Origin: Chiloscyllium plagiosum
Taxonomy: Eukaryota
Assembly: GCF_004010195.1 (NCBI RefSeq)
Contig: NC_057749.1
Span: 13,576,543-13,640,542, forward strand
Direction: 5' to 3'
DNA: 64,000 nucleotides
Each line of letters opens with the position of its first letter. Position 1 is the first letter of the stretch. The notes below the pieces were generated by a model. That model worked only from the letters and a program-made list of their open reading frames with translations, was not told the origin of the DNA and did not search any database. Shown here piece after piece: positions 1,083-62,030 of the stretch. Both the position numbers and the translations under genes were made by a program.

Positions 1083-1940
1083 GGAGAAAGTGAGGACAGC
1101 AGATGCTGGAGATCAGAGTCGGTGGTGTGGTGCTGGAAAAGCACAGCAGTTCAGGCAGCATCCAAAGAATGGGAGAAACGACATTTTGGGCATAAGTTTT
1201 CATCAGGAATGAGACTTGTGGGCCAGAGGGGGTGTGAGATAAATGGGAGGGGGGGTGTGCTGGGGCTGGGGCTGGGGAAGGTAGCTGAGAATGCAATAAG
1301 GTGGGGGAGAAAGTGGTAGTTCAGAGAGGAGGGTGGACCAGATAGATGGGACGTATGATGGACATGTCAAGAGGGCGGTGCCGAGTTGAAGGCTAGGGAC
1401 TAGGATAAGGTCGGGGGAGGGGAAATGAGGAAAATGGTGAAATCCACATTAATCCCATGTGTTTGCAGGTCCCAAGGCAGAAGATACGGCATTCTTCCTC
1501 CAGGCATTTGACGATGGAGGCAGCCCAGGAACTGAATGTCCTTTGTGGAGTGGGAGGGGTAGTTAACGTGTTCAGCTCCAGTGCAGTGGGGTTGGTGGGT
1601 GCGGGTTTCACCGAGATGTTCTCTGAAACGATCCACAAGAAGGCATCCTGTCTTCCTGATGTAGAGGATACCACATTGGGTGCAACAGATACAGTAGATG
1701 ACATTTGTGGAAGTACAGGTAAATTTGTGTCGGATTTGGAAGGATCATTTTGGGCCTTGGACGGTGGTGAGGGTGGAGGTGTGGGCATAGGTTTTGCACT
1801 TCTTGCGGTGGCAGGGGAAGGCGCCAGGAGTGGAGTGTGGACTGGTGGAGGATGTGGATCTGACAAGGGAGGCACGGAGGTAATGGTCTCTCCGAAATGC
1901 TGATAGGGATGGGGAGGAAATATATCCCTATTGGTGGGGT
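1083..1940 (-). mobile_element. Penelope-like retroelement 3' fragment (decayed GIY-YIG endonuclease plus terminus)
   Basis: Minus-strand frames give DRFREHL...HVNYPSHS...HGINVDF, typical of the PLE GIY-YIG C-terminus. The terminus carries a decayed CTGATGA...AAA motif at about 1178-1207. Confidence 0.75.
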
Positions 1941-4024
1941 CAGCTATGCACCCCATCGTGCCTGTGAACAATTCTCTCAACAGTAATCCAATTAGTCCCA
2001 CTTTCCTGCTCTTTCCCCATTGTCTTGCAAGTTTGCTATTCCATATCTACGCCTAATTCCCTTTTGAAATTATTGTTGAGTCTCCTTCAGACATAGCATT
2101 CAAGACCATAGGAATTTTCTACATAAAAACAAGTCCATTCTTCTTCCCTACGGTTCTTTTGCCAACTATTTTGAAGTCAGCTTCCCTTAGTTACAGGCCC
2201 ATCTCCCAAGTGTCAGCAAAAAGTGTTTATGTGTTTAGTATATCAAAACCCTTCATAATTTTGATCGTTTCCAATTAATCTCCTTTCCACATGGTAAACC
2301 CAAATAAAAGTCTAGTTTGTAGCTTGTCAACCAATAGCTGAGATAGCTTATGAGATACTCCACCACTCAAAACATGTCCTGATGCTTGAACTGCGGCTAG
2401 CCCTAGGAAACATACCATAAATACCATCACCAGACAGTGACCGATATCTACAGAATGGCTCTCCAGCATGAATCATTGTCTTGAAGAGTGGCCAACAAAT
2501 AGAGGCTGTTTGCTTTGAGCATCACTCTTGCAGTTCATCATGTGTCTGAGCTACTGAAAACTTTTATGTTATTTACTTTTCTTTGGTAATAAAGTTTAAT
2601 CAGCAGCAACAAGTGAGAACAAAGAGGTTCAGAAAATTGAGAGAGATTAGAGTAAATATGAAAAGCTGACTTGAATAGAAAGACTGCACCTAGTAATTAT
2701 GGCATCTAGAACAATGTGACATAAGATTAAATATAAAACATTTAGAACGCAACAATGTTAAGGGTGTGGTATACAGTGTCAGAGTAAGTGACAAAAGCTA
2801 ACAAAATCCTCATTTCAAAAGAGTTTAGCTAGGGGGCTGAAAGGAAAGAGAATAAAGGGATAAGACAATTTAGTGGGCCCATGAGATGAGGGCCACTGCT
2901 TGCTTTAAGAACTTATATCAACATGAACTATTTGAGGTCGGGAGATGGGCCAAGTCTGCTTCCATGTTATTTTTTTCTTTGGCTCAGGGCACTGAAGTCC
3001 CAAAGAAATAAGGAAATTATAAAACGTACAAAAACATCAATTACAATCATCTGTAAACATGCTATTTGGTAATTGATCAAGAATAGAACTGAGCACTAAC
3101 CCATGTTTATTTTTAAACTTGGCAGAAAAACAAAATTAAGGACAAACTACTTCAGAGGCCTCAACTGTCAACCACAGAACATGGGACTGGAGTCACATAC
3201 AGGCCAGAGCAAGCAGAATAGATAGATTTTCAGTTTTGATCATAGAATCCCTACATTGTGGAAGCAGACCCTCTTGACAAAGCAGTCCACACTGACCCTC
3301 TGAACAGCATCCCACCCCATTACTCTATCCCTGCATTTCCCAAAGCTAATCCATTAATGGACATTAGTGTTTTTAGTTGCGTCCTTTGGCAACCCATCAA
3401 GTTTACAAGATTGTGTTTATTGATAGCCTCCCACAAATGATCAGATTCCCACAATCACAATCAGAACTTGCCAGTTCCAGATCTAACACTCATCCCCTGC
3501 TGTGGAAGTCGAGTACTCCAGCCACTGCCACAGTATTCATGATACACAGACAAAAACATCAATTAGGTCCATATTTGCAATGGCACTTATAAAAGTGAAA
3601 GGTCATAACCTCAGCACATTTGCACATGTAATCCCAGCTCTAATTAGGTCAACAGGTTTGTAATTTGCTTTTCTTTCAACTGGTCTGACCTTGGGGGATA
3701 TTGGGAAGATGCCTCTCCATTTATTACTGGGGCAAGGTTATATTTTCCATTTGTTCTCAGCCTGAGTATGGGGTTGATAAGGAAAGGGAAGAAAAGAATG
3801 ATCTAATGCAAAGTAATTATCAATGAAGGATCATAATCTTAAAACTTCACACACAAATCACCCCTTACTATTTCTTCCACCCATTCCCTATTCACCAATT
3901 CTGCACTCCTTGCTTAAAAGGACATAGTCTAGAAAAGGCTGGTCTTGTGGCACTGTGACCCTCTGAGCCAGAGGGTCCAGGTTCATGTCCCCCTCCAGGG
4001 CATCAGCCAAGGGTTGAACAACGA

Positions 4025-4843
4025 GACCGTGGAGTACAGGTTCATAGCTCCTTGAAAGTGGAGTCACAGGTAGATAGGATAGTGAAGAAGGCGTTTAGTA
4101 TGCTTTCTTTTATTGGTCAGAGTATTGAGTAGAGTTGGGAGAACATGTTGCGGCCGTACAGGACGTTGGTTGGGCCGCTGTTGGAATGTTGCATGCAATT
4201 CTGGTCTCCTTCCTATCAGAAAGATGTTGTGAAACTTGAAAGGGTTCAGAAAAGATTTACAAGGATGCTGCCAGAGTTGGAGGATTTGAGCTATAGGGAG
4301 AGGCTGAACAGGCTGGGGCTGTTTTCCCTGGAGCGTCAGAGGCTGAGGGATGACCGTATAGAGGTTTACAAAATTATGAGGGGCATGGATAGGATAATTA
4401 GGCAAAGTCTTTTCCCTAGGGTCAAGAGTCCAGAACTAGAGGGCATAGAGTCATAGAGATGTACAGCACGGAAACAGACTCTTCGGTTCAACCCGTCCAT
4501 GCCGACCAGATATCCCAACCCAATCTAGTCCCACCTGCCAGCACCCGGCCCATATCTCCACCCAGTTTAGGGTGAGAGGGGAAAGATATAAAAGAGACAT
4601 AAGGGGCATCTTTTTCATGCAGAGGGTGGTACGTGTATGGATTGAGCTGCCAAAGGAAGTGGTGGAGGCTGGTACAGTTGCAACATTTAAGAGGCATTTG
4701 GATGGGTATATGAATAGGAAAGGTTTGGAGGGATATGGGCCGGGTGCTGGCAGGTGGGACTAGATTGGGTTGGGATATCTGGTTGGCATAGACGGGTTGG
4801 ACCAAAGGGTCTGTTTCCATGCTGTACATCTCCATGACTCTAT
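4025..4843 (+). mobile_element. CR1-type LINE 3' fragment with a nested inverted CR1 3' end (about 4447-4560)
   Basis: ORF remnants LECCMQFWSPSYQKDVVKLERVQKRFTRML and FFMQRVVRVW...FKRHLDGYM; 3' end ...catgactctat. Confidence 0.85.
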
Positions 4844-4854
4844 CTATAACACAG

Positions 4855-6427
4855 GGAGAAAGTGAGGACTGCAGATGTTGGAGATCAGAGTCAAGATTGT
4901 GGTGAAGAAGCATCGATGGTCAGGTAGTATCCGAGGAGGAGCAGAATCAACTTTTTGGGCATAGGCCCTTCTTCAGCAATGAGGCCTGTGGATCAGGGGC
5001 ATGTCAGACAAACAGGAAGTGGGGTAGGGTTGAGGTGGTTGGGGGCGGGGGGGGAGGAGAGGTAACTGAGAATGCAATAGATAGATAAGGGGGGGGAGAA
5101 GATCATAGGTCAGAGAGGAAGGTGGAGCAAATAGATGGGAAAGGATTTGGACAGGTCAAAAGGGCGGTACCGAGTTGGACACATGGGACTGAGATAACGT
5201 GGGGGCAGGGGAAATGAAGAAACTGGTGAAATCGACATTAATCCTGTGTGGTTGCATGGCCCCAAGGCAGAATATGAGGCGTTCTTCCTCCAGACGTTAG
5301 GTGCTAAGGGTTTGGCAATGGGGGAGGCCCAGGATCTGTGTGTCCTTGGTGGAGTGAGAGGGAGAGTTAAAGTGTTCAGCCACAGGGCGGTGGGTTTGGT
5401 TGGTTGGCGCGGGGGTCCCAGAGATGTTATCTGAAACAATCCGCAAATTGGCGTCCTGTCTCCCCGATGTAGAGGAGACCACATTGGGTGCAACAGATAC
5501 AGTAATTGATATTGGTGCAGGTACAGGTAAATCTCTGTCGGATGTGGAAGGATCCATCTTCCGTAGCTACACCGGTACTATCGCCCACCTGTTCCTCTGC
5601 TTCACCAATGACTGTATCGGCGCTACCTCATACTCCACAAGGAAGTTGAACAGTTCATCAACTTCACTAACACCTTTCACCCCAACCTCAAACACAACCA
5701 ACCCCCACCGCCCTGTGGCTAAACACTTCAACTCCCCCTCCCAATCCACCATGGACATGCAGGTCCTGGGCCTCCTCCATCACCAAACCCTTACCACCCG
5801 ACGTCTAGAGGAAGAACGCCTCATATTCTGCCTTGTGACCCTGCAACCACATGGGATCAATGTGGATTTCACCAGTTTCCTCATTTCCCCTCCCCCACAT
5901 TATCCCAGTCCTAAACCTCCAACTCGGCACCGCCCTCTTGGCCTGTCCATCACCTTTCCCATCTATCCGCTCTACCTTCCTCTCTGACCTATCACCTTCT
6001 CCCCCACTTCATCTACCTATCGCGTTCACAGCTACCTTCCCCCACCGGCGGCACGGTGGCACAGTGGTATGGGCGGCACGGTGGCACAGTGGTATGGGCG
6101 GCACGGTGGCACAGTGGTATGGGCAGCACAGTGGCACAGTGGTATGGGCAGCACGGTGGCACAGTGGTATGGGCGGCACGGTGGCACAGTGGTTAGCACT
6201 GCTGCCTCACAGCGCCAGAGACCCGGGTTCAGTTCCCGCCTCAGGCGACTGACTGTGTGGAGTTTAATCTAATCTAATCTAATCTAATCTAACCCCCAGA
6301 CCAAGCTCCACCCCCCCCTCCCATTTATCTCTTCATTCCTGATGAAGGGCTTATGCCCAAAACGTCGATTCTACTGCTCCTCGGATGCTGCCTAATATGC
6401 TGTGCTTTTCCAGCACCACACACTCGC
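4855..6427. mobile_element. Penelope-like element insertion with internal inversion (tail-out arms), 13-bp TSD
   Basis: Minus arm about 4855-5560 and plus arm about 5560-6427 both encode GIY-YIG C-terminal remnants (PVAKHFNSPSQS...RRLEEERLIFCLVTLQPHGINVDF). Flanked by the direct repeat ATCTATAACACAG at 4842-4854 and 6428-6440. Confidence 0.8.
6046..6293 (+). mobile_element. HE1/V-SINE-type tRNA-derived SINE with tandemly repeated 5' end
   Basis: GGCGGCACGGTGGCACAGTGGTTAGCACTGCTGCCTCACAGCGCCAGAGACCCGGGTTCAGTTCCC (A and B boxes), an (AATCT)n tail, and five extra 25-bp head copies. Confidence 0.85.
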
Positions 6428-8140: not shown

Positions 8141-8272
8141 GATTTGGAGATGCCAGTGTTGGACTGGGGTTTACAAAGTTAAAAATCACACATCACCAGG
8201 TTGTAGTCCAATAGCTAGTGCTTCCAATTAAACCTGTTGGACTATAACCTGGTGTTGTGTGATTTTTAACTG
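8141..8272. mobile_element. Short fold-back PLE-terminus element (family B), centre deleted
   Basis: Tail TTGGAGATGCCAGTGTTGGACTGGGG, then inverted arms GTTAAAAATCACA...GTCCAA / TTGGAC...TGTGATTTTTAAC. Same family as the copies at 27568, 32502 and 46006. Confidence 0.75.
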
Positions 8273-9040
8273 TGTATAAACAAAGTCTGTACACAATGGT
8301 GACTGAGACTCAAAAACCATCAATATTGGCTCTGCACCACTCTGCGGACAAGTCTGGAGGTGGGCGTAAATAAAATCTAGGCGAAAGTGAGGACTGCAGC
8401 AGATGCTAGAGATTAGAGTGTGGTGCTGGAAAAGCGCAGCAGGTCAGGCAGCATCCGAGGAGCAGGAGAGTCGATGTTTCGGGCATTAGCCCTTCATTAG
8501 GAAACGTTGTGAAAAAAAAAAAGACGTCTCACGGGGCAAGCCAGAGAGAGGTAGGGGGTTTATGTCCGGGCCAATGTTTAGGTCAAAACGACAGGTAGAG
8601 CCAACAGAACAGAGCACTTTAGCAGTATCACCGTGCTGCCTGCGCGCAATTTGGTTAGCCCATGGTACACCGCATGTTAACAGTGACCGCGCTCTATTGG
8701 CTGCAGAGCCTCCAAGTGTTGTGAAAAGGGCGCTATGTCAATGCAAGTCTCTCTTTGTACAGGGGTGCACTTTGGGAGCTTTATCTTTTCAGGGTGGGGT
8801 TTTTTTTTGTGCGTGACTTTTGACCCGCCGCCTGTCCCTCCTCACCCCCCCCCCAACTCTCAGGATCTGCCCGAGGGAGGCGGTGACGTTCTCGCTTTCT
8901 CCCGGACTCCGACCCCGAGGCTCCGAGTGAGGCCTGCTGCCGTGACCCCCCCCCCCTCAGCGGGGATCGGGCTAGGCCTCGGCCAACCCTTCCCGCTCCC
9001 CGGAGTCGGCTTGTCGGGGCTCGCTCGCTCGCTCACTCAC

Positions 9041-9186: not shown

Positions 9187-9204
9187 TCAGGCTTGGCCAT
9201 TGCC

Positions 9205-9565: not shown

Positions 9566-10944
9566 CCAACTATTGCTGCATGACACTCAATGGCATCACT
9601 ATCCTTGAATCCCCCACTCAGGTTGAAATGGTCCACAACTGGGTAAAGACAGGAGACTGACACCAGGTAACAGAGTTGGTGCAATTGCGACGGGTCAAAT
9701 GGCCTCCTTCTGCACTGTAGCAATTCAGTGATTCTTTCAAAGTCCTGATGGTTGCCATTAACCAGAAACTTGACTGGACCTGTTGGGCTATATGGACTAT
9801 ATAAATACTGTGGCCACATAAGCAGGTCAGAGGATTGGAAGCCTGCAGCAAGTCAGCCGGAATGAATCAGCTCCACCAACACTCAAGAAGCTTGACACCA
9901 TCCAGCACAAAGTAACCTCTCTGATTGGCACCACCAACATTCAGTAGCAGCAGAGTGTACCATCTACAAAGTGCACTATAGAATTTCTCCAAGGCTCCTG
10001 AGCACCTTCCAAACCCACAACCACTACCATCCAAAAGAGATGAAAATGTGTTGCTGGAAAAGCGCAGCAGGTCAGGCAGCATCTAGGGAACAGGAGAATC
10101 GACGTTTCGGGCATTAGCCCTTCTCTCATGCATCTGCAGACCTCACTTTCTCCACTACAATCCAAAAGGGCAAGGCAGACACATGGGAACAACACCTGCT
10201 GCAAGTCCCCATTCAAGTTACTGACCATCCTGACTGGGAAATATATCATCATTCCTTCAGTGATAATGCATCAAAATCCTGGAACTCCCCTCCTGATGGT
10301 AGTGTAGGTGGATAGACATCAAATAGGCTGCAGTATTTCAAGAAAGAAGCTCAACCCCTTCTCCAGGGCAACTAGAGATGGGTAGTACATGTTGACCCAG
10401 TCAGGGATTCCCACATCCCCAAATGAATAAAAAATGTTATGTTTGGCCCAGTGATGAGCATCTTCATAACATAAAAGACAACAAGGTATTGGCAAACCTT
10501 TTGAGGAAAGAGATATAAAGAGAACTGAGTGCTTTCTTATCCAAGTAACATCAAAACAAACCATCGTGGTATCAATTCATGCTACCTAGTACAAAACAAA
10601 GCTTCAGATATTGATGTTTGCAAGTTTGTGTGCATACAGGAACATGTCATGGGATTTGTGCCATTAGGAGACAACTCGTGCTGGAATGGTGAACACTATC
10701 ATTCATCAATTAGAAAAGGTGTCATTGTCTTTTTGAAAATTTAATGGTCAAAAGTTGTGATCATATAAAAATTTTGAAGAGAAAATAAAACATTTGCAAC
10801 AAGGAATTCTGGATGTCACCCTGTGAGCCATCCTTGTTCACTGCAGTGCACCTTCTTTAAATTTGATTGACAATGATGCTGCAAAGTGACACCTCAAGGT
10901 GATAGCTTTCTTTGACTGAGTACAACATCATGTTTATGTGTACT

Positions 10945-16486: not shown

Positions 16487-17282
16487 CGAAGAATTGAAAA
16501 AAATATTCTGAACCCACTACAAATTTGATTCCTCTGTACCCGTTCCCTGTTCCAAATTCAGTATTTTTATTCTGTTTCCATTTCAAAGTCTCACAGAAAC
16601 CGTAAACTTCTAGTTAAATGCTGACAATTGGCTGGTGTAAGAGGGAGTTTGGATAAAGGATCTGTAATTCTTTATACAAAGGATAATCCACGCTTAAAGT
16701 GGCGTCTTCCAGCAGAACACCTGTAGTGAAAGACATGTCATTAAAACGTGGGCATTGACGTGACCAATAGGAAGCCTTAACATTAAGAGTGTCTGTTGGA
16801 GTGTGGGCTAAGGTTTTGGACTGGGCTTCAATCAAGGACAAAGGGAATAAAACGACTGGAGATGGCTCCATATTAAAACAACATGTCAGCCTTGGATCAG
16901 TGGGTAATTCCTGCTCGAATGAGCCATTGTTCGATAAAATTCTCAGCAAGCACTTTGGGATGTTTTAGTTTGTTGACATACGAAGGAACAAACGTGTGAA
17001 TGAGGAGCGGGAATAGATCACAGAGAACCGCCCGTCAATCGGATCAAGAACAGAAATGGATAGAGAAACTCAGTAGGTCAGGCAGCATCGGTGCAGAGAA
17101 AGCAGGTTAACCTTTCAACTCCAGTGACCCTTCTTGAGAACTGAGTAAATTGTATTGACACAACCTGTGAAATTGAAACAGAAATGGCAGCTGGGAGGGA
17201 ACAGTGACCTGAGAAATGGCAGAATCTTTCTCGTTGCAATTATTTTGATTAATTTGCAATTCTCTGCCAGAAATCCATTGTG

Positions 17283-17410
17283 CAGATGAAGGGCTTTTGC
17301 CCGAAACGTCGATTTCGAAGCTCCTTGGATGCTGCCTGAACTGCTGTGCTCTTCCAGCACCACCAATCCAGAATCTGGTTTCCAGCATCTGCAGTCATTG
17401 TTTTTACCTT
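17283..17410 (+). mobile_element. PLE terminus (family A) with mutated hammerhead core
   Basis: CAGATGA-A-GGGC TTTT GCCC-GAAACGTC followed by GATGCTGCCTGAACTGCTGTGCTCTTCCAGCACCAC...CAGCATCTGCAG. Confidence 0.75.
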
Positions 17411-18371
17411 TTTAGAACGTTAAGGCGTCGAACGGGATTTCACACACCTCACAGATCTCTCTCTCTCTCCCGCAGACTGAATTCAGTGTCTTGCTCAGAG
17501 GTTGTAGGTGCGAAATGAGTGTCGGTCTGGTAGCTGAAAGGGTTAAAAACGGGTGTCGCTTACCATCAAAAACAGCCCAATATTATCGCTAACGTCGCTT
17601 CTCCCTCCCAAACTACAAACAAGAGAATTGTTTTACATCGAATCTTGTGGGAGTCAGAGACGGCCCATTGAAAATGGATACAAGAACAGAAATTGCTGCA
17701 GAAACTCAGCAGCGTTAGCAGCAAAGTCAACGATTTCGATTCCAACCCGTTCAGATTCGGCCAGACCTGCTGGGTTTCTCCAGCAATTTATCTCTCTGTT
17801 TCAGAGTTCCAGCAGCCGCAGTTCTTTGATTTATTTCAATTAGCCCTAGGTCCGTTTTGCTATGTTTCTTCTGTACTTATCCCCCCCCCCCCCCCCAGCA
17901 CGGGGGAATTGTTTCAACTTCCGTGGACCCTAGATGAACTCGTTTCTAAAATAAATGCCAAATGTGAAACCTGAAACGTGGAAACTTGATATCAATTGGT
18001 GGAGATTGGAGGTAACCTCGGTGTAGCCAAATGGTCCATTTAATCTCAAGTGGAAAACATAGTTTACACATCAAATAGCCCGCTCGAACCGAGTGTGACC
18101 TATTCCCGGAGACACGTGCACCAGATTTTGTAAACAATCTGCCTCGTTCAACCTCATTTTGTGGGATATTCATAAAAAGCACTTGAAGGAAATCTCTAGA
18201 TTTCAACCGGAAACCGACAATAACCCGAAATGAGTTTCCTACAAGCCTGTAATAACCAAGTAGACGTGAACGAGAGCAAAAGTGAGGACTGCAGATGCTG
18301 GAAACCAGAGTTTAGATTAGAGTGGTGCTGGAAAAGCACAGCAGGTCAGGCAGCATCCGAGGAGCTGGAAA

Positions 18372-18404
18372 ATCGACGTTTCGGGCAAAAGCCCTTCATC
18401 AGGA
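18372..18404 (-). ncRNA. Minimal hammerhead-ribozyme motif (PLE family A)
   Basis: Minus strand TC-CTGATGA-A-GGGC-TTTT-GCCC-GAAA-CGTC-GA. Catalytic core intact, palindromic ACGT helix III, GUC triplet. Confidence 0.65.
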
Positions 18405-18629
18405 AGGAGTGCAGCATTCCAGAGGGAAGGTTTTCCCGTAGCGACTTATTGTGAAAGCTGAGACAGAAACAATGAATCAATGCTATTGAATTTGCATGAA
18501 ACTTTGGCCAAATTACTGGAAGGTGCCTGTAGTTCGGAACACCGGATTCGCAGTTACCCGGGCGCAAAGTTTTAATCTTTACTCCTGAGGAATTCACACA
18601 CTCTCCGATAGGTGACCCCTTCAGGTGGT

Positions 18630-19045
18630 TATAGAGTCATAGAGATATACAGCACGGAAACTGATCCTTCGGTCCAACTCGCCCATGCCTCTCACATATT
18701 CTAGTGGAGAGTGTGGTGCTGGAAAAGCACAGCAGGTCAGGCAGCATCCGAGGAGCAGGAGAATGGACGTTTCGAAACGTCGATTTTCCTGCTCCTCGGA
18801 TGCTGCTTGACCTGCTGTGCTTTTCCAGCACCACACTGGACTCTGATGTCCAGCATCTACAGTCCTCACTTTCGCCCAGATATTCTAACCTAATCTGATC
18901 CCATTTGCCAGCACTTGGCCCATATCCTTCTAAACCCTTCCTATTCGTATACCCATCCAGATGCCTTTTTAATTGTACCAGCCTCCACCATTTCCTCCGG
19001 CAGCTCATTCCATACACGCACCACCCTCTGCAAAGTTGCCCCTTC
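18630..19045. mobile_element. CR1 3' end (minus) interrupted by a fold-back family A PLE element (about 18704-18877)
   Basis: Arms 18710-18773 and 18774-18837 meet at GACGTTTC|GAAACGTC. ATATTCTA is repeated on either side as a probable TSD. Confidence 0.8.
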
Positions 19046-20440: not shown

Positions 20441-22363
20441 AGTAATGACTCTCGTTAGAAGAGGCATGATGGGGCGAACGGCCTCGCCCCACTCTTCCCT
20501 GATTCTTGCAGCAGGATAAACGATGAGCTGAATTCAGAAATTGGATGGTGGGTGGCCGCTATATTTGGGATTCTAAAATTGCAACAAGACGGGGAGTTAG
20601 AGCGGCATTCAAGCAAACGAGTGAAGTTGGTCCGAGTGGGATATTCCGAAAGAAGGGCCTCACTGGAAATATAGAGAAAGGACAAATAGCGCTGGCAAAA
20701 CTCAGCAGGTCGGACAGCGCCTGAGATGCGGAAATCATCCACAGGTCAAAAATGTTGGCAGATCTGCCTTGTTTCTCTCGCAACGGATGCCTCCGGGTTT
20801 GCTAAGCGTTCCCAGCTTTCTGTTTTGTTTGTAAGTTACGATGTGTTCCGGTTGGAGAAAGTGTGGATGCAGATGCTGGGGATCAGAGATGAAGAGTGTG
20901 GCGCTGGAAAAGCACAGCCGGTCAGGCAGCATCTGCTCAGTTCACTCATGCGTTCAATCACAACCTGCTCGGGTCTGTTTGCTACCGACCGGACCCCAAA
21001 TCCCAAAGACACTGCCCGGTAAAGTTCCGGCTGCTGCTCACGTCTGTTTAACAGCTCACGACATGATTGGCGATGTCTCTCACACCCGCTGGGCAAGGGC
21101 TGTTGTGGTAGTGTCCCTACCTCTGGGCCAGAAGACTCGGTTTTAAGTCCCACCTGTTCCAGGGGGGAGTCACAACAATTCTGACCAGCTTGTTCAAAAA
21201 AAATCTACATAATGTGGGCCTAACTTTTGAGGACCAGAGTCCAGAATAACTCCGTTGTTTCGTGGACTTCCTCGGTTTGCTAACATTCCTGCTGGATAGG
21301 AATCCAACTTCATCCACTAACTCCCCTCCTGCATCCTACAATCCCAACAATCTCTCCCAGTCCGCCAGCAAATTCAATTTCAGTTCATCGAGAAAGCGGT
21401 TTCCCCAGTCCCTGTGTCTAGTAATAGTTTATTTACTCCATAGATGTAAATAGCTGTCTTTCCTCTCTGCTCTGTTAACATGAGAAATTACATGAAAATA
21501 AGGACAGAATTGGGTGTGCAGGCAAACGTTCGTTTGATTAAATCTCTTTTGCAAAAGTGTTTAGTCGCCACGAGGGAAGTTCAAAGCCAAAATACTTCGG
21601 CTGCTGAAATATAAAGGCAAGGTGCTGGAGAAACTCAGTAGGTCTGGTTGCATCTGTGGACAAAGAAACAATTAACGTTTCGAGTCCAGGTATGACTCTT
21701 CTTCCGAAAATCCACATTATTTTGCTTTAATAATTGCACCATCTGGTACTGGATTTCTCCAGGATTTTCAGTTTTGCTTAGTAACTTTCTTTCTCCATCA
21801 GATTCGTGGCCCCGAATCAAACAATATTTTATTAAGATGGAGCACATTTACATTAATCTCCTTCCCAATTCACTGGGCGGTATTTTGAACGTAAGCCCTA
21901 AGAAATAACAACTCCGAGTCTCCCAATTTCCCCGGAAATGTATGTGAATAAGTTTACCGGGCAAAATAACCTGCAGCTAAACCGAAAATTAATTACGATA
22001 AGCAAATCCGATCTGCAGGGCCATTTTAACTTACAAACAATGCTGGAAATCACAAGCAGCATCCAGACGCTATCTTGATCTCTCCCCACGGATGCTGCCT
22101 GACCCGCTGTGATATCCAACATTTTGTTGTTTTCAGTACAGATTCCAGCATTTTCATACATTCTAACTTTCATATTGTGCGGTTGAGTTGTCAGAAATCA
22201 TGTGAAAGCATATGGGTCAAATGCTGGGAAGTGGGACTGGGTCAGAATGGTAGGCGCGAACGAGTAGGACCAAAGGGTGCTCTACAACTGTGTGACTCTA
22301 CGACCCGTTCTTAACACAGGTGCCTTGGCAAGGGTTGGATTTGCTTGCTTTTATTTTTGACTC

Positions 22364-27065: not shown

Positions 27066-27115
27066 TTGTCTATATTTTTTGGTGTGTATTTTTCTTTTAA
27101 ATTGCTGCCACGCAG

Positions 27116-27567: not shown

Positions 27568-27756
27568 TTTGGAGATGCCGGTGTTGGACTGGGGTGTACA
27601 AAGTTAAAAATCACACAACATCAGGTTATAGTCCAACAGGTTTAATTGGAAGCACTAGCTTTCGGAGCGACAATCACCTGATGAAGGAGCGTCGCTCCGA
27701 AAGCTAGTGCTTCCAATTAAACCTGTTGGACTATAACCTGGTGTTGTGTGATTTTT
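27568..27756. mobile_element. Fold-back PLE-terminus element (family B) in Isl2 intron 4
   Basis: Inverted arms of about 67 bp (27604-27670 and 27692-27758); unique tail on the left; 15-bp TSD AACATTA(C/T)ATAATGG at 27553-27567 and 27757-27771. Confidence 0.85.
27675..27709 (+). ncRNA. Minimal hammerhead-ribozyme motif, sense to Isl2 pre-mRNA
   Basis: CAC-CTGATGA-A-GGAGC-GTC-GCTCC-GAAA-GCTA-GTG: helix I CAC/GTG, helix II GGAGC/GCTCC, palindromic AGCT helix III, CUA triplet. Confidence 0.72.
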
Positions 27757-29642: not shown

Positions 29643-29650
29643 CTCAACAG

Positions 29651-32720: not shown

Positions 32721-33314
32721 TGTACTTTTTAAAGGTTGTGAGGTTTCTCGCCTCAACTCCCGTCCCAGGCAGTGCAGTCCAGATCCCCACCACCTTCTGA
32801 GTGAAAAAGGTTTTTCTCAAAGCCCCGCTAATCCTTTTAAAAAATGCTCCCTTATTATTGATCTATGCTGCCAACTATTGACCCATCCTCAGTGGGTTAG
32901 TTAACCATAAATGAATCTGATGCCTTTGCTCATTTCACTCGGGTGGGTTTGAGTTGAAAAGAATAGTCAGTGCCCAGGCCTATCGATTGGCATACTCTCG
33001 GTTCCGTGCTGTTAAATGGTCACAAGCTGAGTTTTATTGTGGAACTTAATGAGTGTTAATTGTATCACTTGTGAATTTAAAACACTCCGCTCTAACAAAG
33101 GGAAATGGTCCGTTCAGAATCCATTTAAACATAGCTCAATATTCGCTGCTCTCCTTGTTAAACTACCTGTGTACATTCGCTGTTTATTTTTATTGAAACA
33201 CGTGTTGTATGATTTACAAGCCACGCTGAGGAATGAAAGAACTCTATTTGTATTTTTCTCTCCATCCGTCCCCCTCCCAACTCCCCCACCCCCCACATTC
33301 CGTGGGCCCCGCAG

Positions 33315-36472: not shown

Positions 36473-36611
36473 GGAGAAAGTGAGGTCTGCAGATGCTGGG
36501 GATCAGAGATGGAAATGTGTTGCTGAAGAAGGGCTAATGCCCGAAACGTCGATTCTCCTGTTCCCTAGATGCTGCCTGACCTGCTGCGCTTTTCCAGCAA
36601 CACATTTCCAT
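36473..36611. mobile_element. 139-bp family A PLE insertion with inversion and 16-bp TSD
   Basis: TSD CAATGATTGTGACAGA at 36457-36472 and 36612-36627; internal inverted repeat GATGGAAATGTGTTGCTG / CAGCAACACATTTCCATC; core CTGAAGA..GAAACGTC at 36523-36550. Confidence 0.85.
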
Positions 36612-44409: not shown

Positions 44410-44615
44410 TAAACCAGAAACTGCCGGAAAAACTCAGCGGGTCTGGCAGCATCTGTGCAGAGAAAGCAGAGTTAACGTTTTGGGTCCAGTGACCCTTCTT
44501 CAGAACTGATGTCTGTTTTCTCTCCACAGATGCCGCCAGACCTGCTGAGTTTGTAGCCTGTCCCAACCCCAGCAATTTCTGCTTTTGCTTCTGATTTCCA
44601 GCATCCGCAGATCTT
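44410..44615. mobile_element. Fold-back PLE-terminus element (family C)
   Basis: AAACTCAGCGGGTCTGGCAGCATCTGTG / CACAGATGCCGCCAGACCTGCTGAGTTT arms. Minus-strand AGTT-CTGAAGA-A-GGGTC-ACTG-GACCC-AAAA-CGTT-AACT hammerhead-like motif with G12 mutated. Relatives at about 17050, 17685, 21620, 30995, 37395, 50520 and 53318. Confidence 0.7.
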
Positions 44616-44694
44616 TCGGGTTAGACTGAGACTCCCGGCACAGATCGAGGGGAATGCCCGCATTAGCGTGCTGTGGTCTGTCTGTAACCCCCAT

Positions 44695-44920: not shown

Positions 44921-45009
44921 AAAGGTGTAAAAGAAGTGGGATAGTTTAATTTTGAGTACGGGGGAGTGATCTTGCCAATATATCACTGCTGTAAAAAACA
45001 CTTTGATGT

Positions 45010-45540
45010 GGAGGAGCCAGTGTTGGCCTGGGGTGCACAAACTTAAAAATCACAAGACACCAGGTTATAGCCCAACAGGTTTATTTGAAAATACAAGCTT
45101 TCGGAGCACTGCTCCTTCCTCAGGTAGCTAGTGGAGCAGGATCACGGGACACACAAAAGATCATAGCGTCATACACTGAAACGATATATTGAACAAACAT
45201 AGATTGCTGTTAAGACTTTCATCTTTTAGACTGGGTTGCAGGTTTTGGCTCATTAATATGTAAAACTTCTTTCAAGCCACATTCTCGAGATAATTTAAGG
45301 TTTTCTTTAAAAAGGTGACACCTCAGCTCAGACAATGTATTAAAGATGTGAGGTTAAAGTCTGTCTGTATTCCAATCTTGAGTCTGTCTGTATTCCAATC
45401 TATTTCCAAAGTAGGAATTTATAAAATGATACGTGGATTACAAAAAAAAAATTGACGGCCTACAGATTGTGTTTTTTGAACAAAATAGACTGTTTCTGCA
45501 AATACAAATCTGAAAATGCAAATTCACCACATAGCCTATC
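45010..45540 (-). mobile_element. Longer family B PLE 3' fragment with intact hammerhead motif at 45092-45126
   Basis: Minus strand TAC-CTGAGGA-A-GGAGC-AGT-GCTCC-GAAA-GCTT-GTA followed by the family B terminus AAACCTGTTGGGCTATAACCTGGTG. Left boundary is clear; right boundary is approximate. Confidence 0.7.
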
Positions 45541-46005
45541 ACAGAGTCGTACTGTGCCATAATGATCAGTGTTGGTCTCACTACTTTTCATCATTTATAT
45601 AAATGATTTGGATGTGAATATAGGAGGTGTGGTTAGTAAGTTTGCAGATGGCACCAACATAGGCGGTGTATTGGACAGTGAAGAAGATTATCGCAGAGTT
45701 TGACGGGACTTTGATCAGATGGGCCTGGGCTGAGGAGTGGCAGGTGAAGTTTAATTTAGATAAATGTAAGAAGCACTATTCTTTCCCTAGTTTCCCTTTT
45801 GCCCTGAATGTACTTACAGAATCTCTTTGGATTCTCCTTAAAACTCTATTTGCCAAAGTTGTTTCATGTTCCTTTTTTGCCTTCCTGATATCCCTCTTAA
45901 ATGTACTCCTACCTCCCTTATACTCTTCTAGGGGTTCAGTCGATCCCAGCTGTCTATACCTGATAAACGCCTTACTTTATTTATATCAGAGCCTCACTTT
46001 CTCTA

Positions 46006-46187
46006 GTTAAAAATCACACAACACCAAGTTATAGTCCAACAGGTTTAATTGGAAGCACACTAGCTTTCGGAGCGTCGCTCCGAAAGCTAGTGTGCTTCCA
46101 ATTAAACCTGTTGGACTTAAAACCTGGTGTTGTGTGATTTTTTTTTAACTTTGTACACCCCAGTCCAACACCGGCATCTCCGAATCA
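46006..46187. mobile_element. Fold-back PLE-terminus element (family B), 12-bp TSD
   Basis: Arms meet at GGAGCG-T-CGCTCC (46069-46081); TSD TCACTTTCTCTA at 45994-46005 and 46188-46199. Confidence 0.85.
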
Positions 46188-48672: not shown

Positions 48673-50167
48673 AACTGCACACTGCGGTTCACCGAAGAAG
48701 CTAATTACAAACCATCCTTTCAATTTCAATAAAAGGCAAATTGCAAGGTCTTTCAACTCCCCCCACACACATGTTTTCAGGTAGAAAGTGTGAACGAGGC
48801 AGCAAGGGGAAAAAACCCAATGACATTGAAAACCTGATTCCTCGAAAGTATACTACCCGCAATTTTTTTTTCCCCGGGCGCAGTTTCAAACCTCCCGCTC
48901 TGGTACTTGGAGGTTGCTTCCAGCGCCCTGATATTTTAACTTTTACGAAGACAAAAACAAACTTTGAAAAACTCAGGCGACACAAACAATTTCAACCAGG
49001 CCATGTCTCTGAAACGGCCGAGTGGTCTTGGAGTTGGCGCTGCTTTGGCATTTTAAAACCAAAAGGACAAATCCGAACCTGAGTACATTATCTGGAAATA
49101 CGAACATACATTGCAGTTCACTTCACAGAAATGGTCGCCTCACCCTACCCCACCTTTCATTTCTCAGCAGGAACCTGATTTAATCAGCGCTACAGAGTCG
49201 TGATATTGTGGTGACGGGCGCTCGGACCCACAGCAAGGGCCTTGCTTCCAGTCGATGTTTCAGTTCCTGTCTTTATTCCTGATCTTTGGAAATTCTTGGA
49301 GCTCCCCGGCGGTAATAAATAACCCCAGAGTAACCTCGCGAATCCAACAAGGGGGCGGGGGCTGGAGCTCCAGGGACCCAGAGTCCAGGCTGTTGGTGGG
49401 AAGCGAGAGGACATCAATGTACTGGAGGATGTAACAATATTGGAATGACGTGCTCTCTCCAAACACACACACTGCCCAAGGTTAAACTAAGGGTGGGTGA
49501 ACACCGCAGCAGCGGGGCGGATGTGGGTCCATTCGCGCTCTGCTTTAAAGATTTGATCTGCTTCGTAGTCATACACCATGGGAACACACGCTTCGGTCCA
49601 ACCCAACATAATCCGAAACTAGAGTCGAGAGTGTGGCGCTGGAAAAGCACAGCAGGTCAGGCAGCATCCGAGAAGCAGGAGAATTAACGTTTCGGGCATA
49701 AGCCATTCATCAGCCCTTCACTTTCCCCGACTATAATCCTAAACTAGTTTCACCTGTCTGCGCCTGGCCCACATCCCTCCAACCCTTTCCTATTCATGTA
49801 GAACATAGAAAAGTACAGCACAGAACAGGCCTTTTGACACACGATGTTGTGCCGAGGATTAATCCTAATGTAAAACAAAATAACTTAATCTACGCACTGC
49901 TATCTATGTGCATGTCCAGCAGTCGCTTAAACGCCCCTAATGACTCTGCTTGCACCACCACCGCTGGCAACGCATTCCATACATTCACAACTCTCTGTGT
50001 AAAGAACCTTCCTCTGACGTCCCCTCTATACCTTTCTCCTAATATCTTAAAACAATGACCCCCTACCAGTCAATTCTGCCCAGGGGAAAAGTCTCTGGCT
50101 ATTGACTCTATCCATGCTTCTCATTATCTTTTATATTTCGATCAGGTCACTATCTTCCTTCTTCTCT

Positions 50168-50613: not shown

Positions 50614-50724
50614 CTGGAGATCAGAGCTTAAAAATGTGTTGCTGGAAAAGTGCAGCAGGTCAGGCAGCATCCAAGGAACAGGAGAATCGATGTTTCGGGC
50701 ATAAGCCCTTCTTCAGGAATCCAG

Positions 50725-52590: not shown

Positions 52591-52966
52591 CATACTTAAC
52601 CAAGTATGTTTTAAACGGTGGAATTGTGCCCACATCCACCACTTCTTTGGGAAATTCATTCTATACGCGAAACACCCTCTGTGTAAGAAGAATGCCCCCC
52701 ATCGTTGTTTAAATCTCGCTCCTCTCACCTTTAAAATATGCTGGGCGAAAGTGAGGACTGCGGATGCTGGAGATTACAGTCGAGAGTGTGGTGCTGGAAA
52801 AAAAGCACAGCAGATCAGGCAGCATCAGAGGAGCAGGAGAGTCGACGTTTCAGACAAAAGACCTTCATCAGGAATTGAAGATATGCTCCCTGGTCTTGAA
52901 ATCCCCCCAACCCAGGGAAAAGACACATACCATTAACCCTATCTATACCCCTCATGATCTTATGAA

Positions 52967-55642: not shown

Positions 55643-55801
55643 GAGGAGAAAGTGAAGTCTGCAGATGCTGGAGATCAGAGCTGAAAATGTGTTGCTGGAA
55701 AAGCGCAGCAGGTCATGCAGCATCCAGGGAACAGGAGAATCGACGTTTCGGGCATAAGCCCTTCTTCAGCCCTCCTGAAGAAGGGCTTATGCCCGAAACG
55801 A
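55643..55801. mobile_element. Family A PLE insertion with back-to-back hammerhead cores, 14-bp TSD
   Basis: TSD CCACACTGGTCTAG at 55629-55642 and 55802-55815; inserted in a CR1 fragment (55485-55935). Confidence 0.85.
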
Positions 55802-57869
55802 CCACACTGGTCTAGAACTACCTGGGTTGTCTCTACTCCCCTTGTTGAACAAGGGGACATTTCCTCCAGTCTTTTGGCACTATCCTTGTAGACAATGGTG
55901 ACATAAAGATCAAAGCCAAAGGCTTTGCAATCAAATACAGTTTAGGGATCACTGTAGTGTCATTGCCAACTCTGCACCAGATTTGTAACAACTGAATTTT
56001 GCTTGTAAAAGACACTCAGCTTATTTTTGTGAACATTGCTGGCTAACCTAGCATTCATTGTCCATTTCTAATCACCAGGAGGACAATTAAGAATCAACAT
56101 CATTGCTGTGGGTCTGGAGATACCTGTAGGCCAGGCCAGGCAAGATTTCCTTCCCGAAGGGCATTAGGGGAACCAAACATGTTTTTACAGTAGTAGAGAA
56201 ATGGTCACCAATATTCCAAATTTTGTTGAATTTAAAATTCACCGTTTGCCATGGTGGGCTTCTAACCTATGTCCCCAAAACATTGGCCTGGATTTCTGGA
56301 TTGCTGATCCAGTGACATTATCACTATGCCACCACCTTTCCTTTACCCTGTCCTTGAATGTTGTTGAACAAAATTCACACCAACCAAGATATGGTCACTC
56401 AAATATTCCACCTCCTATATATGTTGGAGAAGAGATTCTGCAACATGTTGAGCACTTCCTATATCTTGGCAGCCACTTCTCTCAAAAGGCTACCAATGGA
56501 GAGGAGTTGCAACATCACACAAGTGCCAGGCAACGACCATCACTGACAAGACAGAGTCTAACCATCTCACCTTCACATTCAATGACATTATCATCACTGA
56601 ATTCCCCCCATTATCAACATCATTTAAGTTACCATTGGTCAGAAACTAAACTGGACTAGCTGTATAAATGCTCTGGCTAAAGGAGAGTGGCAGCAGCTTG
56701 TAATCCTGCAGCAAGTAACTCAAGCTCCTTAAAACCTGTCTGCTATCTACAAAACACAAGTCAGGAATGTGATTGAATACTCCCCTCTTCCTTGGATGAG
56801 TGGAATTTCAACACTTGAGACACTTAACACAACGCAAGATGGGTATAATTAATCAACCTGTTCAGAAAAGCTATGACATACCTCTGTACAGGTGGGATTT
56901 AAACCCAGGCCTTCTGGCTGAGAGGCAGGGACAGTACCACTGCATTATAGAGCCCTCAGACCACCGAGGATAAAACGTCCATTTGACTGGCAGCACATCC
57001 AGAAATATTCACTCTCTCCATTACTAACACCCAATTGTATCTTACAAATCCATGACCACTATCACCTGCATATATAAAAAAAGAAACAGATAGATTTCTA
57101 GAGGCTGATGGTGTAATGGGTTATGGAGAGATAGTGGGAGAAGATATTGGGATAGCGAATCAGCCATGATATTGTTGAATGACAGAGCCGGAATGGCCTA
57201 TTTGTTACTATTTTCTATGTCTATATCTAGAAAGACAAGAGCAGCAGGGGTATCGGAACGTCACCAGCAGCAAGTTCCTCTCCAAGACAGTCAACATCCT
57301 GCTTTTGGAAATATACTGCCATTCTTTCAGTGTTACTGGATCAAAATCCCAGAATTCCCCTACTCATAGCACTTTGAGTATACTTACACCTCACGGACTG
57401 CATAGTTCAAGAATATGAATCTTGCTTCAGGGCAATTAATGTTGGGTCAACCTTCGAAACCCACATCCCCTGAACAAATTTTAAAAATGGAGGGACAATG
57501 AGCTATTGAGTGGTCTCAGTCTGCCATTTAATTATTTGACACGAAAAGCACTTGCTTCTATGGTAAGGAATATGGTGGTAAGCAACTCAATACAGAATAA
57601 CTGTTGGTTCAACAGCAGATCCTACACTTGTTTCGTATCCATTCCACAGAATGCAGGTATTCTAGCAAATAACTCATTGAGTTATCTACAGTATTTACAA
57701 GTTATTGACACAATTGGGAGAGACCTTGGAAGATCACTTCATAACACCACCCAAAGGCTAAAGGCCACAACATTCGATAATCGGATTTCTACTCCAAATG
57801 TTTACAAAGGCAGTTTGAGTGTTGGATGAGAACACAAAACTGCAAACACAGCTCAAGTCAATCAGGTTT

Positions 57870-60360: not shown

Positions 60361-60449
60361 AACCATGTTATTCAATACCGCTTGGTGCAAAGACTAATCT
60401 GATGTATTGCTTCTTCCATTTTGTGTTTTAAAAGATGATTAATTTCCTA

Positions 60450-61890
60450 TTTCAGTGTAATTTTCTCTCTCAAATTCCCCTTGATCTTCATCTTAATGGA
60501 TGACCCCTTCCGGTCTTAGACTCCCCCATAAGGAAAACAAGCTCCCTGCATAAACCTTGTAAAGTCACCCAAGAATCTTGTATGATTCAGTAAGATAGCC
60601 TCTCATTTTTCTTATTCCTATGAGTATCGGCCCAACCTATTCAACCTCTCTTCATAAAACAGATCTTCCATTTGTTCCCTGGAATTCAATAACATCACGT
60701 CTGACATGATTTTGACTTCATCTATACTTTCCTGCATACCCTCCGATAATCTTCATCCCTTTGATAATCAAGAATCTATCTATTTCTGGCTTATAATATT
60801 TAAAGATTCCACTGCCTTTTGAGGAAGAAAATTCCAAAGGCTCACTACCCACAGAGAAAAGTTCCCTCATCTTAAATGGGCACCTCCTTATTTTTAAACC
60901 CTGAATCCTAGTTCTAAATGATCCAATAAGAAATATCCTTTCATTACCCATCTGGTCAAGTCCCTTTAGGATCTTATATGTTTCAATTAAGTTACCTCTG
61001 ATTGTTATAAACACCAGAGGATACAGACCTAGTATGCTTAGTTATCCCTCATAAAGTAATCCACTCATTGCAGGTATTAGTCTAGTAAATGTTCTCTGAA
61101 CTTCCAATGCATTCACATCATTCTATAAGTACGATGATCAGTACTGTACACAGTTGGATGAGCATTTAGGTGGCATGGTTAGTAATTTTATGGATGACAC
61201 CAAAATTGGTGGTATAGTCATCAGTGAAAAAGGTTATTTAAGATTACAAAGAGATCTTGATCAATTTGGCCAATGGATTGAGGAATGGCAGATGGAGTTT
61301 GATTTGGATAAATTTGTGGCATTGCATTTTGGTAAAATGAACAAGGGCAGAACTTACACAGTTAATGGTAGGGCCCTGAGAAATGTTGCCGAACAGAGAG
61401 ACCTAGGGGTTCAGGTACATAGTTCTGTGAAAATTGTGTCACAGGCATGCAGGGTGACCAGAATGTTGCTGGAACTGGAGGGTTTGAATTATACAGAAAG
61501 GTTGGATAGGTTGGTGCATCAGAGGTTGAGGGATGACATTTTAGAGGTTTATAAAATCGTGAGGGGCATAGATAAGGTGAATAGCAAAGATCTTTTCCCT
61601 AGCATGGGAGGTTTAAAAGTAGGCAGTATAATTTAAAGGTGACAGGAGAAAGATTTAAAAGGGACCTGATGGGCAACCTTTTCACTCTGAGAGTGGTTCA
61701 AATATGGAATAAATCAACAGAGAAAGTGGTTGATTCAGGTATGGTTACAACACTTAAAAGACATTTGGACAGTTGCACGAATAGGAACATTTTAGAGGGA
61801 TATGAGCCAAAGGCTGGCAAATGGGACGAGTTCAGATTGAGAAACATGGGTGAGTTGAACTTAAGGGTTTGTTTCTGTGCTGTATGACTC
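60450..61890. mobile_element. CR1-type LINE fragments (minus about 60450-61150; plus 61154-61890)
   Basis: RGNLIETYKILKGLD (minus); SNFMDDTKIGG...LQRDLDQ...WQMEF...QRDLGVQVH (plus). Confidence 0.85.
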
Positions 61891-61894
61891 CTGT

Positions 61895-62030
61895 ATTCTT
61901 GATGAAGGGCTTTTGCCCGAAACGTCGATTTTCCTGCTCCTCGGATGCTGTCTGAACCGCTGTGCTTTTCCAGCACCACTTTAATCCAGAATCTGGCTTC
62001 CAGCATTTGCAGTCATTGTTTTTACCTCTA
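61895..62030 (+). mobile_element. PLE terminus (family A)
   Basis: TTGATGA-A-GGGC-TTTT-GCCC-GAAACGTC followed by GGATGCTG...TTTTCCAGCACCAC...GCAGTCATTGTTTTTACCT, the same subfamily as the copy at 17283. Confidence 0.75.

Follow-up and report, generated by a model that had tools for sequence, protein, structure and literature searches.

Short repeats at a Chiloscyllium plagiosum locus as probable truncated tails of Penelope-like retrotransposons carrying minimal hammerhead ribozyme motifs

Introduction

The 64,000-nucleotide stretch of the Chiloscyllium plagiosum genome considered here (the window; NCBI RefSeq assembly GCF_004010195.1, contig NC_057749.1, forward strand 13,576,543-13,640,542) contains an ISL1-type LIM-homeobox gene, the remnant of a long interspersed element (LINE) and a dense population of short repeats, many of which carry the core of a minimal hammerhead ribozyme (min-HHR). 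An original prediction, made from the letters of the window, described these repeats as resembling short interspersed elements (SINEs) and proposed that they carry minimal type I hammerheads, fall into several very abundant and mostly decayed families and derive from Penelope-like elements (PLEs). From searches of the window and of the whole 3.56-Gb assembly (101,977 contigs), we conclude that the repeats are very probably the 5'-truncated 3'-terminal modules of endonuclease-bearing Penelope-like retrotransposons, and that these modules include a minimal hammerhead.

Craig et al. (2021, PMC8557442) give as the marks of a PLE insertion strong 5' truncation, an inverted and truncated 5' copy, hammerheads situated close to the 3' end, and a tail of 30-40 bp that is often confined to one end. 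The tail has been tied to two adjacent reverse-transcription start sites, with both DNA strands being cleaved and extended (Frangieh et al., 2024, PMC11167929). The function of the hammerhead in PLEs is called unclear, and slow or protein-dependent cleavage is reported, in the parts of the literature drawn on here (PMC4209133, PMC8557442, PMC11167929).

The hammerhead motif and its families

The presence of minimal hammerheads in the window is confirmed. When the sites are read on both strands, three families can be distinguished (arrow, predicted cut): family A, CUGAWGA-A-GGGC-NNNN-GCCC-GAAA-CGUC↓GAU; family B, CAC-CUGAUGA-A-GGAGC-NNN-GCUCC-GAAA-GCUA↓GUG; and family C, AGUU-CUGARGA-A-GGGUC-NNNN-GACCC-GAAA-CGUU↓AACU. 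The segment A15.1-U16.1 is a loopless 4-nt palindrome, ACGU in families A and C and AGCU in family B, so that helix III is possible solely between two molecules; the AACGUU palindrome that had been ascribed to family C is really the ACGU of helix III followed by U17. The primary sequences had been thought unrelated between families and the stems do indeed differ, but A and C are related through a common 3' block, GAUGCUGCC.GACC.GCUG.

A first descriptor, which demanded a helix I of at least 3 bp, gave only 3 matches in the window and was too strict because the A-type helix I has a U-U mismatch. The strict min-HHR descriptor made helix I optional and specified CUGANGA, 0-1 nt, a helix II of at least 4 bp, a loop of 3-9 nt, GAAA, a palindrome at 15.2/16.2 and H; it matched the window at 7 sites, and 200 random sequences from a first-order Markov model gave 0 matches. 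For a covariance model, a MAFFT alignment of 55 distinct cores put family B one column off and the A/C subset was used, giving model R1 (43 distinct A/C cores, every one from loci outside the window), which misses family B because the B rows were dropped. R1 returned 15 window sites at E <= 1.7e-5, together with two decayed family members at E 0.13 and 0.35, and four family B cores were added by BLAST and direct reading. Both searches, which had been suggested as checks on the prediction, thus gave results far above chance, and the total of 21 recognisable cores, of which 17 belong to families A/C and the remaining 4 to family B, agrees with the roughly 20 that had been estimated for 64 kb.

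Only 6 of the 21 are fully intact in core positions, helix II and palindrome, which bears out the view that most are decayed. G12 has become A in 5 of the 17 A/C cores, and among 91 unselected A/C copies the common second alleles within the ribozyme are CpG transitions (G12A, C15.2U, G16.2A, C17U and G1.1A). Across 83 descriptor matches the nucleotide between A9 and G10.1 is an A in 82, and the G10.1-C11.1 pair is present in all but 3, namely two singletons and the decayed window copy at 52844; positions 15.2/16.2 are palindromic in all 83, although here the palindrome was a condition of the descriptor. In an A subfamily with the loop CUGU, GAAUC replaces GAUUC past the cut site, which gives five clean helix I pairs and removes the U-U mismatch.

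Ten individual sites had been cited in the original prediction, and eight of these are members of families A, B or C. Three of the eight are damaged, with an ACAU palindrome at 50687, G12→A at 44470 and U4→G at 21672, and the core cited at 36523 (36518-36555) lacks helix I because its 5' flank is non-element sequence. The other two, proposed as further variants, are at chance level: 12869-12900 corresponds to a match at 12867-12902 with 12.9 bits and E 0.46, among 20 matches at E 0.46-10; 55046-55086 has no R1 match at E <= 10; and direct reading finds neither a credible helix II nor a palindrome at either site. Elsewhere in the genome, two single min-HHR-like sites without G10.1-C11.1, one with stems AGGU/ACCU and AUAU (L046:1091-1127, minus strand) and one with stems AGCA/UGCU and AGCU (L018:2771-2808, minus strand), may be further families or chance matches.

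Relationship to Penelope-like elements

A genome search with the Pfam GIY-YIG domain gave 47 matches among 150 scored of 14,403 first-look candidates. The clearest link to the repeats is found at locus L071, where a 429-aa open reading frame (ORF) combines a YIDD motif with a GIY-YIG domain (Pfam E 1.5e-5) and its stop is followed, after 155 nt, by a family A2 core and then by the family's 3' block and tail. The frame has 37 relatives at E <= 1e-9, of 759-1058 aa, and in the two that were domain-scanned the reverse transcriptase (RT) domain RVT_1 precedes a C-terminal GIY-YIG; this is the architecture of endonuclease-bearing PLEs, and family A therefore belongs with elements of that type. Within the window, each of three PLE ORF remnants detected by tblastn (Table 1) lies upstream of an A core on the same strand. 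At 30 loci picked by GIY-YIG alone, a core with at most one mismatch was present within 800 nt downstream of 13 of 32 GIY-YIG ORF ends, and several other GIY-YIG loci retain the 3' block with the core decayed or deleted. The derivation from PLEs with a minimal type I hammerhead is thus upheld through linkage to RT/GIY-YIG frames.

Family B at locus L004 follows an RT-like fragment that corresponds to aa 480-694 of P0004. The 1.09-kb B stretch of this locus has collinear genome copies at 96-99% identity (40 scored of 9,416 candidates), and in this sample 14 copies have a common 5' end and another group starts from query 762-775. Family B may be a deleted, non-autonomous derivative. For family C, a GIY-YIG remnant was found 440 nt upstream at 1 of 20 loci.

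The likeness to SINEs, on the other hand, did not survive. ARAGORN predicted 0 tRNA genes in the window and no tRNA-like RNA polymerase III head was found, and the copies form a 5'-truncation series with a common 3' module that is collinear with PLE 3' untranslated regions (UTRs); a SINE reading is therefore ruled out, and the repeats are better annotated as truncated PLE tails. An element unit starting at the ribozyme, with transcription from -4 and a pseudo long terminal repeat (pLTR) from -4 to +90, was also considered, and the long copy at L069 gives it no support. At L069 a fragment from +49 to +126 abuts the 5' region of the long copy, and this is the single pLTR-like example.

Structure of the copies

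The copies converge on the common 3' module, which in the 5' to 3' direction consists of the end of the 3' UTR, the min-HHR, a family-specific 3' block of ~55-70 nt, and the 3' end. Its min-HHR has a helix I of 2-5 bp, CUGANGA, a bulged A, a helix II of 4-5 bp closed by G10.1-C11.1, GAAA, the palindrome and NUH. The module ends at about +80 to +97 from C3 or some 35 nt beyond, the extension corresponding to the PLE tail, and 3' ends are accordingly bimodal: in a set of 106 unselected A copies the end falls between +80 and +94 in 31, between +120 and +134 in 54 and elsewhere in 21. Between +40 and +90 from C3 (e.g. 36560-36610) lies the conserved 3' block GGAUGCUGCCUGACCUGCUG...UUUUCCAGCA, common to A and C at 0.9 majority over 91 copies. 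We regard it as a candidate site for recognition or initiation by the PLE reverse transcriptase; the consensus fold is one invariant 5-bp hairpin without covariation, in an alignment where 3 of the 4 C rows were broken copies.

Adjacent copies are mostly arranged head-to-head, with 42 such pairs (one of them counted twice through overlapping loci) against 2 tail-to-tail pairs in a sample of ~275 kb. Of the 24 A pairs that could be evaluated by hand count (three more with a cut arm were excluded), 21 have a tail on one arm only, one has two tails, one has none and one is ambiguous, and all 4 of the B pairs in the window have a single tail. Since the tail is on one arm, each head-to-head pair looks like a single insertion event, and we conclude that single insertions yield head-to-head pairs with a one-arm tail.

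The same pairs explain a group of sub-threshold Rfam microRNA (miRNA) precursor matches in the window, at 27640-27722, 18727-18820, 46048-46104 and 32581-32672 (e.g. MIR845_1 with 51.6 bits against a cut-off of 81), which reflect the long hairpins that head-to-head PLE pairs form and are likely to give rise to false miRNA calls. RNA of the pair at 27597-27765, for example, folds to a 69-bp hairpin around the ribozyme (-129.3 kcal/mol, z -27.2). For annotation this means that the repeats should be recorded as PLE tails and that the intronic hairpins of the ISL1-like gene produce false miRNA-like matches.

Copy number and compensatory changes

The families are very abundant, as had been proposed. 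Narrow patterns for intact cores match the genome at 63,344 places for family A and 470 for family C, and for family B there are 14,423 matches to a 35-nt degenerate pattern and 7,546 to a 28-nt core; the reversed pattern, used as control for every count, gave 0 matches each time. In the window the A and B references cover 3,608 of 64,000 bases. A rough extrapolation from the window and the loci suggests that PLE tail fragments are of the order of a million and occupy ~5-6% of the DNA sampled. The majority of copies are already dead when they insert, and their decay proceeds by CpG transitions that often destroy G12; the lineages that went on amplifying have kept the core and compensated stem changes.

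Compensation is seen between families A and C, where 24 rows have C-G and 17 have U-A at pair 10.4-11.4, and where the innermost pair of helix I (2.1-1.1) alternates between C-G (23 rows) and U-A (13 rows). The covariation score was matched by 0 of 500 shuffles and slid controls were all lower, the helix II pairs in this test being partly pre-selected by the descriptor. Family B has yet another stem, with G-C at 10.4-11.4 and A-U at 10.3-11.3. Within family B, the change of helix I from CAC/GUG to UAC/GUA that had been noted at 45092 is a true compensatory pair at the level of a subfamily. Genome counts are 13,098 for CAC/GUG, 777 for UAC/GUG, 257 for CAC/GUA and 291 for UAC/GUA, the doubles comparing with 40.6 expected under independence and the wobble intermediate being three times commoner than the mismatch. 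U17 occurs in about half of the first 100 UAC/GUA doubles against a few percent of the single-change lists (hand counts). This excess, taken together with U17, indicates that UAC/GUA marks a subfamily, of which the copy at 45092 is a member. Hand counts of within-family doubles in the first 100 listed matches were also made for helix I of B (2 against 0.36 expected) and helix II of C (5 against 2.7), and both are too weak to be informative.

Discussion

The structure of the copies and their linkage to RT and GIY-YIG frames lead us to view the short repeats, with high confidence, as PLE tails that include a minimal hammerhead. Whether the ribozymes of families A, B and C cleave in vivo is a separate matter, and here we consider cleavage possible while leaning somewhat to doubt. 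Cleavage of minimal hammerheads as dimers was reported by Lunse, Weinberg and Breaker (cited in PMC6765202). By analogy with published PLE work, two ribozymes on one multimeric or pLTR-containing transcript of an active element would pair through the palindrome to form a shared helix III, each then cutting after its own NUH, in a reaction that would be slow and would probably need the element's own protein.

Transcription of at least one family is supported by run X9, a poly(A)+ single-cell RNA library with the same species label. It places 9,121 reads on the window, nearly all from other copies, and 97% of them continue into unlike sequence; 328 reads extend from upstream sequence proper to the B element across the core, from which it follows that family B is transcribed. 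Another run, X10, gave 0 reads on the window. Untemplated poly(A) tails are found after 27733 and 27736 (298 and 318 reads), where there is no genomic A-run. These sites lie 27-30 nt past the predicted cut and ~23 nt short of the 3' end of the DNA copy. RNAs that end there cannot template the last part of the element, and host transcripts may acquire poly(A) sites from B copies.

Several results weigh against cleavage, or against parts of the wider reading, and should be considered together. Reads of X9 span the predicted B cut site (depth ~1,031 at 27706), and no pile-up of read starts or ends is listed on the window, in a type of library that is ill suited to the capture of cleavage ends. 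Copies would be expected to start at position 1.1 if cleaved RNA were the usual template, and such a start is seen in only 3 of the 116 unselected A copies and in 0 of the 30 B copies. Dimer cleavage needs tandems, and there is 1 clear same-strand tandem (of family B) against the 42 head-to-head pairs; the latter are predicted to lock the ribozyme in a long hairpin, in which several intact cores would be trapped. Helix I has only 2-3 contiguous bp in most A and B copies. In minimum free energy folding of four cores helix II forms, and cofolded dimers favour an extended helix II duplex over the double hammerhead, an outcome that says nothing on ribozyme activity. Rfam covariance models found 0 hammerhead families at gathering thresholds and none at E <= 10, the sub-threshold miRNA-precursor models being the only ones to match these repeats. 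Of the two signs of selection relative to the flanks whose absence the original prediction had named as refuting it, stem covariation between families is present, but the core of the A/C copies is conserved no more highly than the 3' block; the helix II pairs were, as mentioned above, partly pre-selected, and each between-family change may represent a single evolutionary event. Lastly, no GIY-YIG was found beside family B in the loci examined, the link of this family to PLEs being the RT-like fragment only.

The best surviving alternative is that the motif belongs to the PLE and something other than catalysis is being kept, the folded hammerhead, or the helix II palindrome in its cDNA, acting as a structural landmark (a protein-binding site, an RT stop or a strand-switch point that would fix the 5' ends and the junctions of head-to-head pairs) or being a mere passenger. 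We regard this as rather unlikely. In its favour, the 5' ends of copies cluster at the ribozyme: a start between -12 and +5 of C3 (mode -4 to -3) is seen for 46 of the 106 unselected A copies and for 15 of the 29 B copies, and by hand count 34 of the 41 distinct head-to-head pairs have at least one arm that ends at the ribozyme 5' edge. In symmetric pairs the pivot is a palindrome within the ribozyme, such as the helix II loop at 46005-46142 and UUCGAA at 18713-18883. Added to this are the lack of any excess of 5' ends at the cut site and the reads that cross it uncut. Published work points the same way, as catalytic mutants were without effect on insertion in vitro (PMC11167929), and PLE clades without hammerheads are described as proliferating well, with the suggestion that hammerheads may 'simply parasitize PLEs' (PMC8557442). 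Against a purely structural role stands the identity of the catalytic C3, G5, A6, G8, G12, A13 and A14 in three families with different stems, as a hairpin or protein site would not obviously demand exact catalytic nucleotides. Moreover, the 5'-end peak of the solitary copies may be in part an alignment artefact because only two references were used, with BLAST stopping near -4 where the upstream sequence of a subfamily differs.

A more specific proposal of this sort is that the hammerhead marks, and perhaps sets, the point of termination or strand switching in PLE cDNA synthesis, which we put forward as a speculation with a low likelihood. It draws on the clustering and pivoting at the ribozyme and on the observation that the shorter arm bears the tail in 8 of 10 clearly asymmetric pairs (hand count). 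One integration would then give two cDNAs, one primed from each cleaved DNA strand and each with a different initiation site, that would meet at the structured and partly palindromic ribozyme. Were this so, the hammerhead would have a structural function in integration besides, or instead of, the cutting of RNA.

It is very unlikely that the short units form a separate non-autonomous class, comparable to the non-LTR retrozymes or to SINE-like elements such as Schistosoma Sm-alpha, and spread via tandem arrays and small circular RNAs instead of as truncated PLE tails. In its favour, many copies are only ~95-130 nt long and start just 5' of the ribozyme, the 1.09-kb B unit with its shared 5' end has a non-autonomous look, same-strand neighbours occur 177 and 355 nt apart in genome listings, and animal retrozymes have been argued to derive from PLE pLTRs (Li et al., 2026, preprint). 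At L079:1056-1260 (minus strand) two short units of family B, covering -5 to +89 and -4 to +83, follow each other in direct orientation at a distance of 25 nt, and an arrangement of this kind would permit dimer cleavage. However, longer copies run unbroken from the ORF through the 3' UTR to the same core and 3' block, the 5' ends make up a truncation series, tandems are rare in comparison with head-to-head pairs, there is no tRNA-like head, and no reads joined back at the cut sites occur among the X9 joints listed. A reading of the motifs as ordinary repeats that happen to match a short degenerate pattern has next to no probability and is refuted for families A, B and C, for although ~3 bare CUGANGA...GAAA would be expected in 128 kb (both strands; our own arithmetic) and the cited sites at 12869 and 55046 do behave in this way, the random sequences and reversed patterns gave nothing against 7 window sites and tens of thousands of genome matches, and the stems covary.

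The PLE tails described here are of an already described kind, and what appears to be new, judged from sequence, are the families, their very high copy number and the young, transcribed family B. They resemble the metazoan PLE min-HHRs of Cervera and De la Pena (2014, PMC4209133) in the core, the extra nucleotide after A9, G10.1-C11.1 and the 4-5 bp helix II; in having a palindromic 15.2/16.2 and no helix III hairpin, with a position in the PLE terminal repeat near the 3' end; and in the existence of many consensus families per genome with compensatory changes, most copies being outside full elements. They differ in that the families are specific to this genome, with helix II GGGC, GGAGC and GGGUC, and in their far higher copy number: at least 78,000 intact cores are counted here with three narrow patterns, against ~4,000 in coelacanth and ~9,000 in Xenopus in that study. 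The words 'shark' and 'Callorhinchus' do not occur in its main text, the supplements of which may list further vertebrates. In common with Rfam type I and III hammerheads, the families have the conserved core nucleotides and the NUH triplet, and unlike them they lack an intramolecular helix III and tertiary loop contacts.

As described in the excerpts drawn on here, the Poseidon-type element PAc of Anolis carolinensis (PMC11167929) likewise combines RT with a C-terminal GIY-YIG and has a hammerhead ~100 nt upstream of the reverse-transcription start, and the wider anatomy is shared with PAc and other PLEs (PMC11167929, PMC8557442): alternative 3' ends 30-40 nt apart, inverted 5'-truncated partners, a tail at one end, and no RNA-seq ends at the cut. 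For PAc, unprocessed RNA is the main substrate and no RNA-seq ends were found at the cut site (PMC11167929), with which the X9 reads and the 5' ends of the copies agree. The PAc ORF, however, starts inside the ribozyme, whereas in family A the core comes after the end of the frame and belongs to the 3' UTR. Those excerpts make no mention, either for PAc (PMC11167929) or in PMC8557442, of 5' ends that cluster at the ribozyme 5' edge as seen here.

Animal non-LTR retrozymes are also short, non-coding units with type I hammerheads and a weak helix III (De la Pena lab, 2020, PMC7229834; Li et al., 2026, preprint), and are described in the same sources as probably mobilised by PLE proteins and, it is proposed, derived from pLTRs. 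They have tandem arrays, circular RNAs and canonical loop-loop contacts, whereas the present families have rare tandems and the minimal form, with no circular RNA among the joints listed.

The genome thus constitutes an unusually large natural data set of intact minimal hammerheads, among which a young transcribed family has near-identical kilobase copies, and covariation at the level of lineages, the mapping of cleavage ends and the anatomy of insertions become directly testable.

Further features of the window

The positions of the cores and related features are collected in Table 1.

Table 1. Hammerhead cores, paired insertions and related PLE features, by position in the window.
Feature	Position	Strand	Remark
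Family A core, dead: helix II 5' strand lost, G12→A, C15.2→U	1175..1211	-	E 0.35; downstream of PLE ORF remnant
PLE ORF remnant, linker and GIY-YIG region, aa 637-761 of relative P0004, 42% identity	1547..1921	-	tblastn E 2e-20
Family A core, dead: G12→A, broken palindrome	4944..4981	-	E 4.9e-7
Head-to-head junction of two longer PLE copies; GIY-YIG remnants 5237-5588(-) and 5691-5861(+)	5237..5861	.	tblastn
Family A core, sole defect G12→A (CpG transition)	6334..6371	+	E 8.6e-13
Family B head-to-head pair joined 3' of the ribozyme, hence no core; tail on left arm only	8172..8279	.	
Family A core, dead: G5→A, G16.2→A	8468..8505	-	
Family A2 copy, truncated within CUGANGA	10096..10134	-	
Family C copy, heavy decay: CUCA, helix II 3' strand lost	17063..17144	-	
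Family A1 core, dead: U4→A	17278..17315	+	
Family A1 core, intact; predicted cut after GUC	18370..18407	-	E 1.5e-12
Family A head-to-head pair, joint GAAAC/GUUUC; both arms from +19; tail on one arm	18713..18883	.	
Family C variant, compensated helix II GAGUC/GACUC, 7-nt loop; dead core, U4→G	21669..21711	-	E 1.7e-5
Family B head-to-head pair, intron 1 of ISL1-like gene	27597..27765	.	
Family B core, intact: helix I CAC/GUG, helix II GGAGC/GCUCC, AGCU; predicted cut after CUA	27675..27709	+	
AAUUAAA signal and poly(A) addition sites inside B element	27715..27736	+	untemplated A tails
Family C core, dead: C3/U4 changed, G12→A	31065..31100	+	E 0.13
Family B head-to-head pair, intron 2; left arm dead core ~32588-32626(-): A6→C, U16.1→C	32535..32724	.	
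Family B core, intact, helix I of 2 bp only	32634..32668	+	
Family A2 core, intact, without helix I	36518..36555	+	E 4.8e-10
Family C core, sole defect G12→A; helix I AGUU/AACU	44469..44508	-	E 4.2e-12
Family B core, intact; subfamily with compensated helix I UAC/GUA and U17	45092..45126	-	
Family B head-to-head pair centred on helix II hairpin; both arms from +8, no CUGANGA; tail on right arm only	46005..46142	.	
Family A core, damaged: G10.1→U	49681..49718	-	
Family A2 core, broken palindrome ACAU	50684..50721	-	E 2.1e-13
Family A1 core, decayed helix II GGUC/GUCU; passed the descriptor through G-U pairs only	52839..52876	-	
Family A2 head-to-head pair: intact core 55737-55774(-), 28-nt partial core 55775-55802(+)	55645..55802	.	
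Family A1 core, dead: C3→U	61894..61931	+	E 6.5e-12

The ISL1-type LIM-homeobox gene has exons at 27112-27402, 29651-29811 and 33314-34150 on the plus strand. Its homeodomain is recognised by Pfam at E 1.9e-16, the best solved relative is ISL-1 (E 4.1e-37), and spliced RNA contigs connect 27238-27402, 29651-29811 and 33314-33476; the introns hold repeats of families B and C. Other very abundant repeats, without a hammerhead, lie at 39250-39550 and 44550-45200 and have the top RNA depth of the window, with minus-strand poly(A) addition at ~44696-44709 in the latter. The LINE remnant, which is unrelated to PLEs, is a 195-aa open frame at 52008-52595 on the minus strand, in which an Exo_endo_phos endonuclease domain is recognised (E 7.5e-13). 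The window contains one N, at 43295.

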